Source: a virus
Lineage: Duplodnaviria > Heunggongvirae > Uroviricota > Caudoviricetes
IMG/VR virus record: IMGVR_UViG_2522572023_000010
DNA length: 57,015 bases
Strand: one strand, 5' to 3'
Below the pieces are notes generated by a model. It had not been told where the DNA came from. It worked only from the letters and a program-made list of their open reading frames with translations, and ran no database searches. A program made the translations under genes and the position numbers. Below, piece by piece: positions 8,434-38,374 of this stretch (position 1 is its first letter; every line of letters starts with the position of its first letter).

Positions 8434-9753
8434 TCATTCTCCTGTTCTGCCTGTATCACTGCCCACTTCATCCAGCCCCTTGACATCCTGCCACGGCCCG
8501 TCACCAAACCTGACCTGCAAATGCTGAAAAAAACCCTGAACCCGTGTGGCATCTTTGGGGTCAAGAAAGGTCAGTCCGGTGATGAGTGCGCCATCTGTAT
8601 CCGGGAACCAGCCATTGCTGTTTGTCTCAATAATGCTCGCCGGCCCCAGACGAAAACGGATTTGTGTCTCCCCCGGGTCGCCCTTCGGTCCCTGAGGTCC
8701 GGTTGCCCCCACCGGGCCAGCCGCACCTGTTTCTCCTTTCGGTCCCTGTGGGCCTGCCGGGCCTGCCGCACCGGTATCTCCCTTTGGACCCTGTGGACCT
8801 GCATTTCCCGTCAGACCGGTCTCTCCCCGCTCTCCCCTGTCACCTTTCGGCCCCTGCGGGCCTGCCGGACCAGCATCACCTGCCGGTCCCCGTTCGCCGG
8901 TTGCCCCGACAGGGCCGGTGTCACCGCGCTCTCCCTTATCACCCTTCGGCCCCTGAGGACCCGCGGGCCCCTGTTCCCCCTTTGGCCCGGGAGGTCCCAC
9001 CACGGTGGGGATTCGGTTTACGGCTTCTTCCGCCGCTATCCTGCTTTGTTCCGCTGACTGTGCGCTTTCTGCTGACTCCCGGGCTTTTTCTGTTGCGGTC
9101 GTTGCATCCCTGGCTGCATTACCGGCTGCACTTTCTGCCGTCTTTCTTGACAATTCAGCTTCTGCTGCACTTTGTGATGACTCACTGGCTTTTTGAGCGG
9201 CCGCAGAGGCCGAGGACGAGGACGCCTCCTCTGACTGCTTTGCAGCGGCTGCACTTTCTGCCGCCTGCCGGGCTGACTCCGATGCATCCCCTGCTGAAGT
9301 GTCAGCATTTGCAGCGCTCTCTTCTGCCTGACTGGCTGATATGCCGGCATTCCTCGCTGATGTCTCCGCCTCTCCGGCATTCTTCTTCGCCTCCTCAGCG
9401 TGACGCGCCGCTTCTTCCACCATCAGTTCAAAACGACGCAGTGCCTCCGGCCGGACGTCATCCTCCGACATGGCACCGAGAAAATCATTCAGCGTACCGG
9501 GTTGAGAATCTTCATACACGGTGATGGTCCCGGCATGTGACGGCGGGAATCCCTCCACCAACAGAATGACGCTGTACTGACCGTACTCAACGTCCATGCT
9601 GTAACGACCGGCTTCATCCGGATTTTCAGAGGCCACCGTGTTCACCACCACCGTGCTGCTGGTCCGTCTGGCTTTCAGTTGAATGGTGCAGTTCTCTACC
9701 GGTTTTCCTGTGCCGTCTTTCAGTACACCTGAAATCTTTACTGCCATATTCAC
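8434..9753 (-). CDS. tail fibre protein with collagen-like Gly-X-Y repeats
   Basis: 439 aa with over 30 consecutive G-X-Y triplets (GPPGPKGEQGPAGPQGPKGDKGERGDTGP...); position after lom as in lambda stf. Confidence 0.8.
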   Translation of the reverse strand: MNMAVKISGVLKDGTGKPVENCTIQLKARRTSSTVVVNTVASENPDEAGRYSMDVEYGQYSVILLVEGFPPSHAGTITVYEDSQPGTLNDFLGAMSEDDVRPEALRRFELMVEEAARHAEEAKKNAGEAETSARNAGISASQAEESAANADTSAGDASESARQAAESAAAAKQSEEASSSSASAAAQKASESSQSAAEAELSRKTAESAAGNAARDATTATEKARESAESAQSAEQSRIAAEEAVNRIPTVVGPPGPKGEQGPAGPQGPKGDKGERGDTGPVGATGERGPAGDAGPAGPQGPKGDRGERGETGLTGNAGPQGPKGDTGAAGPAGPQGPKGETGAAGPVGATGPQGPKGDPGETQIRFRLGPASIIETNSNGWFPDTDGALITGLTFLDPKDATRVQGFFQHLQVRFGDGPWQDVKGLDEVGSDTGRTGE

Positions 9754-22466: not shown

Positions 22467-22793
22467 TCATAACACCGTCGGACAACGCAAATCGTAAATC
22501 AGCACGGACACAGAAAACGGCAGCTCCCCCTGAATCAGTTCTTCCCGCTCCGCAAGATCCGGATTCCGGTACAGCATCCCGGTCAGTCGCATGGCAGCCC
22601 CCTTCATCCGGGTTAATGCCTCGCCCGGGATCAGTTCACCGTCCTCACGAATCACCTTATCCCGGCTGCCCTGAATGTAGGCCAGCAGCACGGCGGTAGC
22701 CTGACGAACCTTGTCCATCAGCATGTCATCATCCGCGTCATGGTCGACACGCAGATGTGCCTTGATCTCTTCCAGTGTCAGTAATGCCGTCAT
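22467..22793 (-). CDS. head-tail connector (gp6-like) protein
   Basis: 108 aa; synteny. Confidence 0.6.
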   Translation of the reverse strand: MTALLTLEEIKAHLRVDHDADDDMLMDKVRQATAVLLAYIQGSRDKVIREDGELIPGEALTRMKGAAMRLTGMLYRNPDLAEREELIQGELPFSVSVLIYDLRCPTVL

Positions 22794-24013
22794 TTTCCGC
22801 CTCCTGCATCCCGTCCACGTTTGGCAGCCAGGGTCCAGCCTGATGAATGAGCTTCTCCGGGTTTATCACCGGTCATACTGTTGCAGTGCCACAGCGAGCC
22901 CCCCCACGTCACCGTATCACCGGGGTGGTAGGTTTCACCGGCTCTGAACACACCGCGGTAGAGCATCACCGGCAGGGAAAATGTTTTTTCCGTACGCTGG
23001 CCACTGCTCTGCCGGACCACCACAGTGAACGACCGTTCGCCGGTCATGCTGACGTCAATATCGGCCACCCCGTCAACCAGGCATTCCCATCCCCGCATCC
23101 CGTGCGTTTTTTCATACGCCCGCCAGAGTCCGCCCTGGTGTGTGGCATACGTGCCCCGGGGAAAGGATTTTTGATCGTCAATGGCGGGGATTATTTCCAG
23201 TGCCGTGGCATCACGCCCGTCCTGCGGAGCCGGCAGGGCTCTCACCGCATCCAGAACAGCCTTCTGCAGAACATCGGGATCATAGTCACGACCATCACGC
23301 GGAACAGGAATATGGCTTACCGCCTCTTTCACCATCTGTTCAAGCATCGGACGCACATCATCGGGGGTAATACTTTTGCCGTCCGCCGGTACCGGAATAT
23401 TCGCGACCGCATCATTCACCGCCTTCTGCAGTACTTCCGGATCGTAATCACGACCATCACGCGGAACAGGAATATGGCTTACCGCCTCTTTCACCATCTG
23501 CTCAAGCATCGGACGCACATCATCGGGGGTAATACTTTTGCCGTCCGCCGGTACCGGAATATTCGCAACCGCATCATTCACCGCCTGCTGCAGTACATCC
23601 GGATCATAATCACGACCATCACGCGGAACAGGAATATGGCTTACCGCCTCCTTCACCATCTGTTCAAGCATCGGACGCACATCATCGGGGGTAATACTTT
23701 TGCCGTCCGCCGGTACCGGAATATTCGCAACCGCATCATTCACCGCCTGCTGCAGTACATCCGGATCATAATCACGACCATCACGCGGTACCGGAATGGC
23801 CCCCACAGCATCATCCACCATCGCCTGCAGAACCGGACGCACCTCATCCACCGTCACATGCTTCTGTAATACCGCCGACAGGGAAGTCAGTTTCTCTTCA
23901 AACGCTTGTGCCTGCGAGGCCATCTTCCCCTCAAATGTGCGCTGTAAATCCGCCAGCACCGTGGAGAATTCTTCTCCCAGTGCACGAATAATGGACAGTT
24001 CCCGTTCCGTCAT
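22790..24013 (-). CDS. structural protein with tandem 59-aa repeats (function unknown; possible decoration or scaffold-like protein)
   Basis: 407 aa containing about 3.3 copies of PVPRDGRDYDPDVLQQAVNDAVANIPVPADGKSITPDDVRPMLEQMVKEAVSHI; sits between portal and connector. Confidence 0.6.
   Translation of the reverse strand: MTERELSIIRALGEEFSTVLADLQRTFEGKMASQAQAFEEKLTSLSAVLQKHVTVDEVRPVLQAMVDDAVGAIPVPRDGRDYDPDVLQQAVNDAVANIPVPADGKSITPDDVRPMLEQMVKEAVSHIPVPRDGRDYDPDVLQQAVNDAVANIPVPADGKSITPDDVRPMLEQMVKEAVSHIPVPRDGRDYDPEVLQKAVNDAVANIPVPADGKSITPDDVRPMLEQMVKEAVSHIPVPRDGRDYDPDVLQKAVLDAVRALPAPQDGRDATALEIIPAIDDQKSFPRGTYATHQGGLWRAYEKTHGMRGWECLVDGVADIDVSMTGERSFTVVVRQSSGQRTEKTFSLPVMLYRGVFRAGETYHPGDTVTWGGSLWHCNSMTGDKPGEAHSSGWTLAAKRGRDAGGGK
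23270..23800 (-). repeat. coding tandem repeat, about 177-bp unit in about 3.3 copies
   Basis: Near-identical DNA units visible on the plus strand (e.g. 23290-23466, 23467-23643, 23644-23820). Confidence 0.8.
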
Positions 24014-25374
24014 TTTCTCAGTATCCCCCTGAACATCGCTTTCACTGCATCATGCTCTGTTTCACTGATTGCCTTATTACCGTCAGATGCGCCGTCAGGC
24101 AGTTGTGCTGAAACTGTTTTCCCGGCCGACGCGAACGGGTCCTCACGGGCATCACGACGGGACAGCGCCTCCAGACTGTAGTTCTGCTGCTGAAGATACA
24201 GTGCATCACCGCCGGCAAGGGGCGGCAGGTTCTCACGTTTACGGGCCTCATTGGGCGTGAGAAGCGTATTTTTCACCGACTCACCCAGCGTTTTCATGCG
24301 CCGTTCGCTGTCCATTCTCAGCAGCGTGGTGACGTCAAACTCCGTACTCTCGTTTTCCCCCGTTTCCAGCGCCTCATCCAGTAACAGTTCAATGGACTCA
24401 ATCAGCGTCTGCAGGCACTGGGAATAATACTGCTGCTCCAGCGCCTCCACGTTGTCACTGGAAGGCGGGTGGCCAACGCCAATCTTGTAGGCCGGGACAC
24501 GGAACACCGAACAGACAATTTCAGCGGTCATCTTCAGTTGTTCCACCGTCTGCGCATCCACCGGTGAAAACGTCGTGGGGTTGTATTTTGCCCCGTTGCT
24601 CAGAATGGCCGTTTTCCCCGCATTTTCGCCTGTATACCCGCTGTCCCAGTTGCTCTTCAGTTTTTTCGCATTTTCTTCCGTAATACTGCCGGGGATCTCA
24701 ATCACCCCGGACGGCCTGCCGCCATTTCTGAAAAAAGACGTCGAATTTTCCTGAATATGATGCCCCTGCATGGCGGCCAGTCCTGCGGCATACACCGGCG
24801 GCAGCCCCACAAGCGGATGAAAAAAACAGTTAAACCGGTCGTGGATCACCTCCCGGGCAGGCACCGTCACCGCCTCCGTGATCCCGCAGTTCCGGTCCGG
24901 CGTGATGCGGTAGAACACCTCGCCGTCATCCGCCACCAGAGGTTCAACCCGGCTCCAGTCCAGAATACGCAGTTCTTTGATCTGCCCCCGGGAGTTACGG
25001 ATTTTCAGCACCACCGTATTGCCGTGACGCAATTTGGAATTCAGCCACAGTTCAAAAAACTGGATGCGATTCTGCTGCGCATTAGGACGACGACAGAGAC
25101 GGGCAATATCCCCCTGCCGTTTTTCACGGCGGATCCCCTGTGTATCCGTCTGCATCAGGCGCAGCCGCATTTTGGCAATATCCTGGGATATCAGCGAAAT
25201 GCATGAAAACACCGCATGAAAGGAGAGGACACTTTCCGGATCGGCTTTCACACCCTGCTGCCAGGCGCCGGCAAAGGGCTCAACCACCGCCTGAAACAGG
25301 CTGGTCCAGCCCACCTCTTTTACATCACGTCCTGATTTCTGGTTTTTTCGGGTTCGTCGCAAAAAGTTCCACAT
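24010..25374 (-). CDS. portal protein, HK97 family
   Basis: 454 aa with portal signature ...SVFRVPAYKIGVGHPP... Confidence 0.85.
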   Translation of the reverse strand: MWNFLRRTRKNQKSGRDVKEVGWTSLFQAVVEPFAGAWQQGVKADPESVLSFHAVFSCISLISQDIAKMRLRLMQTDTQGIRREKRQGDIARLCRRPNAQQNRIQFFELWLNSKLRHGNTVVLKIRNSRGQIKELRILDWSRVEPLVADDGEVFYRITPDRNCGITEAVTVPAREVIHDRFNCFFHPLVGLPPVYAAGLAAMQGHHIQENSTSFFRNGGRPSGVIEIPGSITEENAKKLKSNWDSGYTGENAGKTAILSNGAKYNPTTFSPVDAQTVEQLKMTAEIVCSVFRVPAYKIGVGHPPSSDNVEALEQQYYSQCLQTLIESIELLLDEALETGENESTEFDVTTLLRMDSERRMKTLGESVKNTLLTPNEARKRENLPPLAGGDALYLQQQNYSLEALSRRDAREDPFASAGKTVSAQLPDGASDGNKAISETEHDAVKAMFRGILRK

Positions 25375-25541
25375 TCGCTATGCTCCGCATCATGTTTCTT
25401 TTTCTGACCCGCCGGACGTCGCGCTGTGATGTACTCCGCCTTCCCCAGGCGAACCAGCACCTCCGCACACGGCTGTGCCACATCACGGATATCCCCGGCC
25501 CGGGCATCATGCGTGCCCTGCAGATATCGGATCTTTGCCAT
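25320..25541 (-). CDS. small hypothetical protein between capsid and portal genes
   Basis: ORF track only; weak ribosome-binding site; overlaps the portal start by 55 nt. Confidence 0.25.
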   Translation of the reverse strand: MAKIRYLQGTHDARAGDIRDVAQPCAEVLVRLGKAEYITARRPAGQKKKHDAEHSECGTFCDEPEKTRNQDVM

Positions 25542-25585: not shown

Positions 25586-27523
25586 TCAGCCGCCGGACGC
25601 ACTGCCGTAGTTCACTCCGGTGATCACCGCCACCGCCGCGGTACGGCGACGACGCCAGTTGATCCAGCGCTCCGCACGGATGGCCACGCTGCCTGTCTGG
25701 AACATGGAAACCAGCTCCACCGGGGACGGCGTGGTACTGTCGCCGGTCGGCTCAGACTGCATTTCCAGTGATGCCTCGCGGGACATATCCACTGCCACGC
25801 CGCCGTCATCCGCCAGATAAATATCCGGGGCATTCACCAGCACCAGCTGGTCACCCACGTACTGGGAGACAATCACCGGCAGCCCCTGGAAGGAGCCACC
25901 CAGCAGGGTCATGTCCGGGTATTCCTTCTGACCCAGCGCATTTTTACGCATGGACAGTGCCAGGGCATTGGTGCTGGACATCAGCCAGACCGCACCGGTG
26001 GGCTGCAGGTTTGCTGCCACAAACTGTCCAAACGCCGCCTCTGCATCCGCATCCGGGTTACCGGTTGATGCCGTGCCCTTCACATCATGGGTGATGGACG
26101 CCGGGGAGACATCTGCCACTGCGGCTTTTTTCGGGTCCACAAAGTCTGTATCCAGACGCGCCACCACCGCTTCCGCCAGCGCATTACGGACCAGTGCATC
26201 AGCAGCCGGACTGGAAAAACGGATCAATTCTTCCGTCAGTACCGCAATGGCCGACACCTTCGCATGACTGAAGGTGATGGATTCAAAATCAAACTTCGTC
26301 AGGGGTTTTGCCTTACCCTCACCCACCCAGCCGGCAGCACCGCCGGACACCTGGGCGTGCACACGGATATTGAACGGCACCTGACGAAGTGCAGGGATCC
26401 CGCCCTGACCAAATCGCCCGATAATGGTCTGCGGACGCAGGTAATCAATAAAGTCCTGTGCGTATTCCTGATATTCAGACAGGCTGCCTGCCCACTGCGG
26501 ATCCGTGGTGGTCCCCGCGCCCACTGCCGATTTCAGGACATGATGCAGACGACTGTCATCCGGATACTGACGACGGGCCACTTCCAGGGCTTCAGATCGG
26601 ACGCCTTTAGCCGCAGCCAGCGATTTGGCAAAGCGGGCGAAGCCAATCCCCTTATCCAGTTTCTGCTCAACACGGATCACCGGCGCTGAAGCCACCGTGG
26701 CCACATTCCCGTTACCGGCCTGTTTCACCGGCTGTGCCGTGGCGGCCTTACCGGCTTCCAGTTCACGCAGACGCTTCAGGTGCGCATCCACCTGACGGAT
26801 TTCCGCTGCGGTGTTGTCGTAGTGCTCTTCCTCTTCCACATCCAGTGTGCGGCCTTCCTCTGCGGCTTTGTTCATGATCTCCTCAAGGGAGGCTGCCAGC
26901 GCCGCACGCTTGTTTTCAAAACTTTTAATCTGTTCACCAGTATTCATTGCTGACTTTTCCTTATGAAAAGAGGTTATTGACTGTGCCGAAGCGCCGGCAG
27001 AAGATGCGATTTTCACCACCGGTTTCCGGTTGCCGGACGCGGCAGAAAACGGGCGGTCGTAAGATTTAATGGTCCGGATGGTGCATTCCGCATTCGCGGG
27101 CACGGTGACGGCAGACACCTCCATCAGCTCCCAGCGCAGAAAATGCAGTCCGCCTCCGTCCAGATAAGTGTATTCATGGGGCCGGAAGCCCACAGAAAGC
27201 CCCCTGACCAGCCCGGTCTTAATGGCAGCCCAGGCCTCATCCAGCCGGGCTGCCATCTGGGAGGGCATCCCCGGCTCCGGCTTCACCAGCATTGCCGTGA
27301 TTTCCAGCCCTTCCCTGACCCGACGCACCGTACACTGGCCTACAGGGCGGGAATGGTCATGCTGCCAGAGAAACGGGATCGTACTGCCAAACTCCGCCCC
27401 CTCCGGCTCCAGGATGTCACCATCCCGATCCGGAGAAGGCGTTGACGCAATCCCGGTGATCACCCGTTCATCCTCACTGAAGGATTTCACCGTCAGCAGG
27501 GAACAGGCCCGTTTAAGAGTCAC
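25586..27523 (-). CDS. prohead protease (HK97/S78-like) fused to HK97-fold major capsid protein
   Basis: N-terminus VITGIASTPSPDRDGDILEPEGAEF...PFLWQHDH resembles prohead protease; C-terminal 400 aa resembles HK97-type capsid. Confidence 0.85.
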   Translation of the reverse strand: MTLKRACSLLTVKSFSEDERVITGIASTPSPDRDGDILEPEGAEFGSTIPFLWQHDHSRPVGQCTVRRVREGLEITAMLVKPEPGMPSQMAARLDEAWAAIKTGLVRGLSVGFRPHEYTYLDGGGLHFLRWELMEVSAVTVPANAECTIRTIKSYDRPFSAASGNRKPVVKIASSAGASAQSITSFHKEKSAMNTGEQIKSFENKRAALAASLEEIMNKAAEEGRTLDVEEEEHYDNTAAEIRQVDAHLKRLRELEAGKAATAQPVKQAGNGNVATVASAPVIRVEQKLDKGIGFARFAKSLAAAKGVRSEALEVARRQYPDDSRLHHVLKSAVGAGTTTDPQWAGSLSEYQEYAQDFIDYLRPQTIIGRFGQGGIPALRQVPFNIRVHAQVSGGAAGWVGEGKAKPLTKFDFESITFSHAKVSAIAVLTEELIRFSSPAADALVRNALAEAVVARLDTDFVDPKKAAVADVSPASITHDVKGTASTGNPDADAEAAFGQFVAANLQPTGAVWLMSSTNALALSMRKNALGQKEYPDMTLLGGSFQGLPVIVSQYVGDQLVLVNAPDIYLADDGGVAVDMSREASLEMQSEPTGDSTTPSPVELVSMFQTGSVAIRAERWINWRRRRTAAVAVITGVNYGSASGG

Positions 27524-38124: not shown

Positions 38125-38201
38125 TGGCGCGTTGTACTGGATTCGAACCAGTGACCGATTGCTTAGAAGGCAATTGCTCTGTCCGACTGAGCTAACAACG
38201 C
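38125..38201 (-). tRNA. argO: tRNA-Arg (anticodon UCU)
   Basis: 77 nt GCGTTGTTAGCTCAGTCGGACAGAGCAATTGCCTTCTAAGCAATCGGTCACTGGTTCGAATCCAGTACAACGCGCCA; cloverleaf with anticodon loop CTTCTAA. Confidence 0.9.
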
Positions 38202-38214
38202 ATGATGCTGATAA

Positions 38215-38291
38215 TGGACCGCCATCGGGGACTTGAACCCCGCACAGCCAGCTTCGAAGGCTGACGCTCTATCCCGATGAGCTAATGGCGG
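38215..38291 (-). tRNA. argN: tRNA-Arg (anticodon UCG)
   Basis: 77 nt CCGCCATTAGCTCATCGGGATAGAGCGTCAGCCTTCGAAGCTGGCTGTGCGGGGTTCAAGTCCCCGATGGCGGTCCA; anticodon loop CTTCGAA. Confidence 0.85.
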
Positions 38292-38298
38292 TATGTGA

Positions 38299-38374
38299 TG
38301 GTGGCCCTTGCTGGATTTGAACCAGCGACCTGGCGATTATGAGTCGCTCGCTCTCACCACTGAGCTAAAGGGCC
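38299..38374 (-). tRNA. ileZ: tRNA-Ile2 (anticodon CAU, lysidine type; formally Met-like)
   Basis: 76 nt GGCCCTTTAGCTCAGTGGTGAGAGCGAGCGACTCATAATCGCCAGGTCGCTGGTTCAAATCCAGCAAGGGCCACCA, close to E. coli tRNA-Ile2. Confidence 0.85.

Follow-up and report, generated by a model that had tools for sequence, protein, structure and literature searches.

The IMG/VR virus record IMGVR_UViG_2522572023_000010 is a lambdoid prophage of 57,015 nt (hereafter the window, meaning this whole stretch of DNA), and one of its head genes carries a tandem array of 162-bp coding repeats. We named the product of this open reading frame (ORF), a protein of 407 amino acids (aa), Ext. The portal protein has in Ext a conserved partner that is translated separately, and the repeat array is the expandable middle of Ext. 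As to what the protein does, we tentatively favour, at a little short of even chances, a minor head protein present in few copies and bound to the portal, with the repeats as a spacer of variable length; its location and its function are what we infer from the genes.

The 54-residue coding repeat of Ext

Tandem Repeats Finder reported one array at 23259..23797 on the minus strand, with a period of 162 bp (54 aa), 3.3 copies, 96% matches, no indels and a score of 994, and a second repeat search returned three in-register copies spaced 162 bp apart. Such an array cannot be chance. With a period divisible by three and units arranged head to tail inside the 407-aa ORF, it is a coding variable-number tandem repeat (VNTR). 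Unit 1 comprises aa 74-127 (23633..23794, minus strand, as are all features of Ext and its neighbours below), unit 2 aa 128-181 (23471..23632; 158/162 nt and 54/54 aa identical to unit 1) and unit 3 aa 182-235 (23309..23470; 155/162 nt and 52/54 aa), so that the full units share 155-158 of 162 nucleotides and 52-54 of 54 residues and the array is 96-98% identical. They are followed by a diverged half unit of the 25-aa sub-repeat type (aa 236-260, 23234..23308). Each 54-aa unit divides in turn into a 25-aa and a 29-aa sub-repeat, which are related and follow the pattern IPVPxDG...D.V...V..AV; in all, Ext contains eight consecutive sub-repeat modules, and a diverged remnant of the 29-aa type lies just upstream of the first.

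An earlier note on this DNA, made from the sequence alone, had described about 3.3 nearly identical in-frame units in a gene between portal and head-tail connector. The copy number, the reading frame and the position are all borne out, the last by Pfam matches of the upstream ORF to PF04860 (E 4.7e-81) and of the downstream ORF to PF05135. The unit size given there, 177 bp or 59 aa, is a miscount; the unit that it quoted is exact but has 54 residues. The 1224-bp Ext gene is 100% identical to the finished chromosome of E. coli O145:H28 RM12761 and 99.7-99.8% identical to the 'PPompW' prophages, and the same match length was found in many complete genomes and in phage genomes. Given the perfect identity to a finished chromosome and the alleles of the same length elsewhere, the allele is not an assembly artefact.

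Two short arrays are the only other tandem repeats in the window. One, at 8712-8802, consists of two 45-bp copies with 84% matches; by eye its reverse strand encodes collagen-like G-X-Y triplets, and it presumably lies within a tail-fibre gene.

The Ext gene and its neighbours

The Ext gene occupies 22790..24013 (ATG at 24013-24011, TGA at 22792-22790, from the ORF list and the sequence). Directly upstream lies the portal gene (454 aa, 24010..25374), and directly downstream a gene for a gp6-like head-tail connector (22467..22793). At both ends the genes overlap by an ATGA. The portal stop codon (TGA, 24012-24010) overlaps the Ext start codon at 24010..24013, and the connector ATG overlaps the Ext stop codon at 22790-22793; each overlap stands in a AAAATGACGG motif. 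Given these overlaps at both ends of Ext, the portal, Ext and head-tail connector genes look translationally coupled in series.

The Pfam matches give the minus-strand order as large terminase, a 645-aa fusion of S78 prohead protease and major capsid protein (MCP), portal, Ext and connector, followed by head completion protein, HK97 gp10-like protein, tail completion protein and a tail tube protein with an Ig domain. The portal domain PF04860 spans aa 54-382 of the 454 residues and ends well before the junction with Ext, and the Pfam search gave no PF04860 match in the 407-aa Ext ORF. The major capsid gene (25586-27523, minus strand) precedes the portal gene, an unusual order of head genes; in its product, what looks like a coiled coil links an S78 protease to an HK97-type capsid domain. 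A 73-aa ORF at 25320-25541 overlaps the portal start.

Variation of the repeat number among E. coli-type alleles

The intact E. coli-type Ext ORFs in IMG/VR contain 0.3 to 6.3 units and differ in length by exact 54-aa steps. The most frequent class has 405/407 aa (41 loci), followed by 353 aa (23 loci), 461 aa (8 loci), 299 aa (6 loci) and 245 aa (2 loci), and single loci have 515 and 569 aa; another 569-aa allele was found in the set of 81 loci used for the junction analysis below. Some dozen ORFs do not fit this series of lengths; these are truncated. Loci apparently belonging to one genome can also differ in unit number: under the contig prefix 638341086, one locus (L055) encodes 515 aa and two (L069 and L070) encode 353 aa.

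The units within one gene are on average 94.9% identical, as against 91.9% for units of the same index in different genes. This excess of identity within genes points to recent duplication or homogenisation and fits unequal recombination or replication slippage, and units are most likely gained and lost by one of these processes acting between near-identical copies. The earlier note had expected the modular units to expand and contract and the copy number to differ between related phages; the whole in-frame steps and the identity pattern agree with the former, and the 54-aa length classes, together with the 461-aa Ext of phage BP-4795, with the latter. It had also foreseen trouble in short-read assemblies, which is plausible, as most database homologues are 'partial' at contig ends and the median number of match places is five per genome with the gene. 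In Shiga-toxin-producing E. coli, the combination of 162-bp units with several near-identical prophage copies per genome makes the locus prone to short-read collapse or contig breaks.

Split and fused alleles at the portal-Ext junction

In the window the portal gene ends in ...AGG GGG ATA CTG AGA AAA TGA, with the Ext ATG overlapping that TGA. A tract of five G (G5; 24025..24029), 15 nt upstream of the portal stop codon, doubles as the Shine-Dalgarno-like AGGGGG of Ext. Among 81 E. coli-type loci the length of this tract correlated perfectly with the organisation of the genes: the 52 loci with G5 always had two ORFs, and the 29 loci with six G (G6) always had one, a fused ORF of about 812-1028 aa that reads ...MFRGDTEKMTERE... 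across the junction (a typical portal-Ext fusion has about 860 aa). Tract length thus differs among alleles with a change of reading frame, as in phase-variable tracts. Across all of IMG/VR, exact-pattern scans found 135 junctions, 94 with G5 and 41 with G6 (about 30%), and none with G4 or G7. Sequencing error was considered as the origin of the two states and ruled out by the ratio of 94 to 41, the absence of G4 and G7, and the occurrence of both states in deposited phage genomes. Phages 2851 (859 aa; reportedly infectious) and vB_EcoS-783R2 are fused; phages BP-4795, which is also reportedly infectious, JLK-2012 and the Salmonella phage FSL SP-016 are split.

The G6 state is polyphyletic. 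In a neighbour-joining tree built from 1.1 kb of the flanks, its occurrences are scattered over at least four or five positions, and both states were seen in two of the haplotypes. The length classes of 353, 405/407, 461 and 569 aa were seen with both G5 and G6, and the rarer classes of 245, 299 and 515 aa with G5 only. The ratio of non-synonymous to synonymous substitution rates (dN/dS) of the non-repeat parts of Ext was 0.29 within G5, 0.31 within G6 and 0.29 between them, and the Ext ORF is intact in most of the split alleles that are fully readable. By these measures both the split and the fused state look functional and under purifying selection.

In Enterobacterales outside E. coli the junction reads ...CAGAGGATTgcttaccAAATGA, with the ATGA overlap and a purine-rich Shine-Dalgarno-like site in the same place but without the homopolymer; the sequence CAGAGGAT of genera other than that of E. 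coli has none. The split, usually with the ATGA overlap, is found in all 27 other species analysed below as well as in phages FSL SP-016, BP-4795 and JLK-2012, and is therefore the ancestral state. The E. coli lineage changed AGAGGA to AGGGGG(A), from which one more G yields the fusion. An independent natural portal-Ext fusion also exists: P0219, a protein of 1237 aa, has a portal part 48% identical to that of the window, repeats of a different type (LPEPEPLPDI...) and the same Ext C-terminal domain, and this fusion occurs with the same synteny in two separate metagenome assemblies (L121/L122, 4001-7714).

Three prophage tRNA genes lie at 38125-38374 on the minus strand, namely Arg(UCU), Arg(UCG) and a 'Met' tRNA with a CAU anticodon. 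From the tRNA clusters of Shiga toxin (Stx) phages we take the last to be probably of the ileZ type, reading AUA. These tRNAs would read the rare codons AGG and AUA that stand beside the G tract (AGG GGG AUA).

Conservation of Ext and its link to the portal gene

Genome contigs were searched with a profile of the Ext C-terminal domain alone. The order MCP-portal-Ext-connector, with Ext as an ORF of its own, was present in 27 of 27 species-level loci outside E. coli. These came from hosts including Kosakonia, Enterobacter, Citrobacter, Kluyvera, Buttiauxella, Pantoea and Morganella, as well as Pseudomonas, Paraburkholderia, Marinobacter, Rhizobium and a metagenome-assembled genome of the Caulobacteraceae. 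The ATGA overlap and the AGAGGA/AGGGGG Shine-Dalgarno-like site are conserved in the Enterobacterales relatives. In four further, distant relatives Ext stands in the same place directly after the upstream gene, which is a PF04860 portal in three and an uncharacterised, truncated ORF of 446 aa in the fourth. In two of the three with a PF04860 portal the downstream genes are quite different. Given this difference, the portal is the sole invariant neighbour of Ext.

In two distant relatives, the loci L249 (5294-8186) and L250 (4472-9475), Ext again comes after the portal gene; they have, in place of connector genes, faint MptE-like matches and an acyltransferase-type hexapeptide-repeat protein after Ext, together with a weak methyltransferase match and a radical SAM/SPASM gene. 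This cassette may serve virion or glycan modification.

The Ext C-terminal domain is 47-70% identical to its relatives, from Kosakonia to Rhizobium. Identities for this domain, the portal and the MCP were 70, 68 and 76% in Kosakonia and 61, 50 and 50% in Pseudomonas. The domain thus evolves no faster than portal or MCP, unlike a host-range determinant. The family as a whole comprises 5661 clusters at 50% identity (E <= 0.001), the representatives of which are 123-1237 aa long (median 400) and, on a rough count of the motif, hold between about 0 and 20 modules. Judged from these sequences, variable length is a hallmark of the Ext family.

Predicted architecture of Ext

A full-length model of Ext was built with AlphaFold2 (AF2) on a 32-sequence alignment. 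It contains a long helix at aa 3-50, with a predicted local distance difference test score (pLDDT) of 74-86 over aa 1-50, then eight helices of 13-17 aa each, separated by 12-aa loops with a PxPxDG motif, and finally a beta domain at aa 289-397. When the C-terminal domain was modelled alone, the mean pLDDT was 90.8 and ten strands were predicted. Ext is therefore predicted to have three parts. The N-terminal region (aa 1-72, 23798..24013) comprises the long helix and then the diverged helix of the 29-aa type; the variable middle consists of helix-loop modules of about 27 aa; and the C-terminal beta domain (aa 261-407, 22793..23233), delimited from the AF2 model and conserved by its identity to relatives, ends in a sub-domain resembling CBM5/12 (about aa 355-397, 22823..22951). 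Ext is acidic overall (pI 4.9), and its C-terminal domain is near neutral.

The sub-domain is modelled as a small three-stranded beta fold that can be superposed on chitin-binding domains. Its Pfam CBM_5_12 score in the window protein is 20.7 bits, against a cut-off of 26.2; among the relatives, P0125 (47% identical) passes with 29.8, and P0148 and P0157 reach 24.8 and 21.9. Weaker fold matches were to small domains of tail fibres and tailspikes, and the BFVD matches were viral proteins that join collagen repeats to ChiC-type binding domains. No match to the window protein exceeded the threshold in Pfam, NCBIfam or PDB. Matches to TetR_C_35, FliG_N and DUF4244 fell on the repeats, were weak and below cut-off, and were dismissed.

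Proposed place and role of Ext in the virion

The evidence on the portal side of Ext is what leads us to favour a portal-bound minor head protein. In known portal structures the portal C-terminus faces the head interior. Given this orientation, and given that a C-terminal fusion is apparently tolerated in two lineages, Ext would most likely lie at the portal crown inside the head. The ATGA coupling and the in-frame fusion at about 30% of the junctions in turn suggest a low, portal-like copy number rather than the hundreds of copies that a scaffold or decoration protein would need. On this reading, translational coupling would keep Ext at portal-like low amounts, its N-terminal helix would bind the portal, and Ext would probably be placed within the head, on the crown of the portal. 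The repeats would then be a flexible spacer of non-critical length, tethering the conserved, carbohydrate-binding-like C-terminal domain. Possible roles include genome retention or ejection, or the binding of a conserved glycan, such as peptidoglycan, after ejection. A bolder version makes Ext a detachable, length-variable continuation of the portal in the head, carrying a glycan- or peptidoglycan-binding domain that leaves with the DNA, with G5 and G6 as the two states of a selected switch that would set, genetically and perhaps at translation too, whether Ext is attached to the portal non-covalently or covalently; this is a speculation to which we give only a small chance.

Several points weigh against a portal-bound protein inside the head. 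A PDB sequence search and the literature yielded no virion proteomics or structure for any member of the Ext family. Outside E. coli fusions are rare, P0219 being the sole one among 149 diverse representatives. Fused alleles retain both the Ext Met codon and the Shine-Dalgarno-like G tract, so that free Ext could still arise by internal initiation and the fusion may be merely tolerated. The repeat region was modelled at low confidence (pLDDT about 40-65). The C-terminal domain is closest in kind to outward-facing fibre modules, those of tail fibres, tailspikes and collagen- or chitin-binding proteins, and some relatives end in collagen-like G-X-Y tails, which suit an external fibre better.

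An external fibre is accordingly the strongest competitor and a serious one, although we consider it rather unlikely. Here Ext would be a neck, collar or head fibre, with its helix anchored at the portal vertex, the repeats as a shaft and a glycan-binding tip that aids adsorption; the portal-Ext fusions would have arisen by accident and be tolerated, the start codon of Ext still yielding the free protein. Besides the retained start site, the fold matches and the collagen-like tails just mentioned, the succession of helix, variable repeat and distal binding domain is the typical layout of a fibre, and the Ext gene adjoins the neck genes. Against this stand the inward-facing portal C-terminus, to which Ext is nevertheless fused at 30% of the junctions, under the same purifying selection and with an independent origin elsewhere, and the tip, which is the most conserved part of Ext and evolves like portal and MCP, not like a receptor-binding tip. 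Moreover, the invariant neighbour of Ext is the portal and not the connector genes. The role proposed in the earlier note, that of a scaffolding or head-decoration protein with its length set by the repeat number, found no direct support and is very unlikely. The N-terminal half of Ext is helical and acidic, as in many scaffolds, the gene lies within the head module, and capsids might be decorated through a sugar-binding-like domain, as they are by Hoc-type proteins. The 645-aa capsid gene, however, already combines its own protease with the capsid protein, and the coiled-coil linker in that ORF can be read as a scaffold-like segment. Ext itself is coupled, and often fused, to the low-copy portal, a 2.3-fold variation in length between near-identical capsid modules would be unlikely for a scaffold, and Pfam, PHROG and NCBIfam gave no scaffold or decoration matches.

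Two other explanations concern the junction. The G tract could be a functional switch that sets the ratio of free to covalently attached Ext, by programmed -1 slippage or by heritable G5/G6 phase variation. Only G5 and G6 occur among the 135 junctions, G6 is polyphyletic, identical 1.1-kb flanks are found with both states, slippage of tRNA-Gly by -1 on the G GGG of AGG GGG AUA would reproduce the G6 protein exactly, and rare codons flank the tract. Yet the X XXY YYZ heptamer is absent, leaving a single-tRNA slip only, and no stimulatory structure is found 5-9 nt downstream, the sole clear hairpin starting about 41 nt away (z -2.8). In other genera the tract is missing (AGAGGA), and a run of five or six G would be short by the standard of contingency loci. 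The prophage's own tRNAs would probably read both rare codons, and recombination among prophages could also produce the polyphyly. A switch is thus improbable in our view. The reading implicit in the PGAP annotation, that the window holds a decaying, frameshifted portal pseudogene of which the 407-aa ORF is the dead C-terminal half, can be all but set aside. It agrees with the one RefSeq record inspected, which joins 24010-25374 and 22790-24013 as one 'frameshifted' portal pseudogene, and with PHROG 2271, a 'portal protein' of 859 aa of which the Ext ORF matches positions 455-859. The split is nonetheless ancestral, being shared by all 27 other species and three phages. The split alleles also have a dN/dS of 0.29 and mostly intact ORFs, and the portal Pfam domain stops well short of the junction.

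Comparison with known systems

The nearest parallels to Ext are the minor head proteins of the SPP1 gp7 and Mu gpF type. Like them, Ext is encoded immediately downstream of the portal gene, would have a low copy number, which for Ext is implied by the portal coupling, and combines a presumed portal-binding N-terminal part with a variable C-terminal part. Ext and its relatives gave no Pfam match to the Mu F family at E <= 0.01, and SPP1 gp7 does not share the architecture of repeats plus a CBM5/12-like domain; for Ext, both presence in the virion and portal binding are what we infer from the genes. The fused alleles also recall the C-terminal helical barrel of the P22 portal, since they continue the portal C-terminus into the head with a predicted 48-aa helix and more helices. 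Unlike that barrel, Ext is normally a polypeptide of its own, with conserved PxPxDG loops that interrupt it, a variable length and a beta domain at its end.

With fibres (tail fibres, the fibritin whiskers of T4 and the head fibres of phi29) Ext shares the plan of an N-terminal anchor, a repeat shaft and a small distal beta domain, and copy-number variation in shaft repeats is common among fibre-type proteins. It differs from them in its conserved tip, in a gene locked to the portal rather than to the tail, and in its fusion to the inward portal C-terminus. Coding VNTRs and homopolymer contingency loci have in common with Ext the in-frame changes of unit number between strains and a short G tract that toggles the frame; Ext differs in its long units (162 bp), in a tract of only 5 or 6 G, and in that neither G state abolishes the protein.

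Annotation and significance of the Ext family

Ext matches were present in 1247 of 5426 complete E. coli genomes, and the records that we inspected name it 'portal protein'; among the close homologues in databases, the majority are portal proteins, either fused or partial. We rejected the PHROG name 'portal protein' for Ext, which lacks PF04860, as carried over from the fused alleles. The libraries used held no curated Pfam or NCBIfam model for the family, apart from a precomputed tag, PF28083. P0023 and P0024 are among the Ext-containing proteins that bear this tag, and so is the 353-aa form that stands alone; PF28083 would be a very recent family, one that may already include part of Ext. 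In the literature on Stx and lambdoid prophages we found nothing specific on the Ext repeat, the Ext family or the fuse/split tract. Asadulghani (2009) scored the portal genes of some Sakai prophages as defective, without detail.

Variable coding tandem repeats in phage virion genes are of a familiar kind, and as such the Ext repeat is unremarkable; of greater interest is the fuse/split dimorphism. The Ext locus could serve as a marker for prophage typing, and Ext is a candidate for a new portal-vertex component of the HK97-type siphoviruses, the long-tailed Stx phages included.

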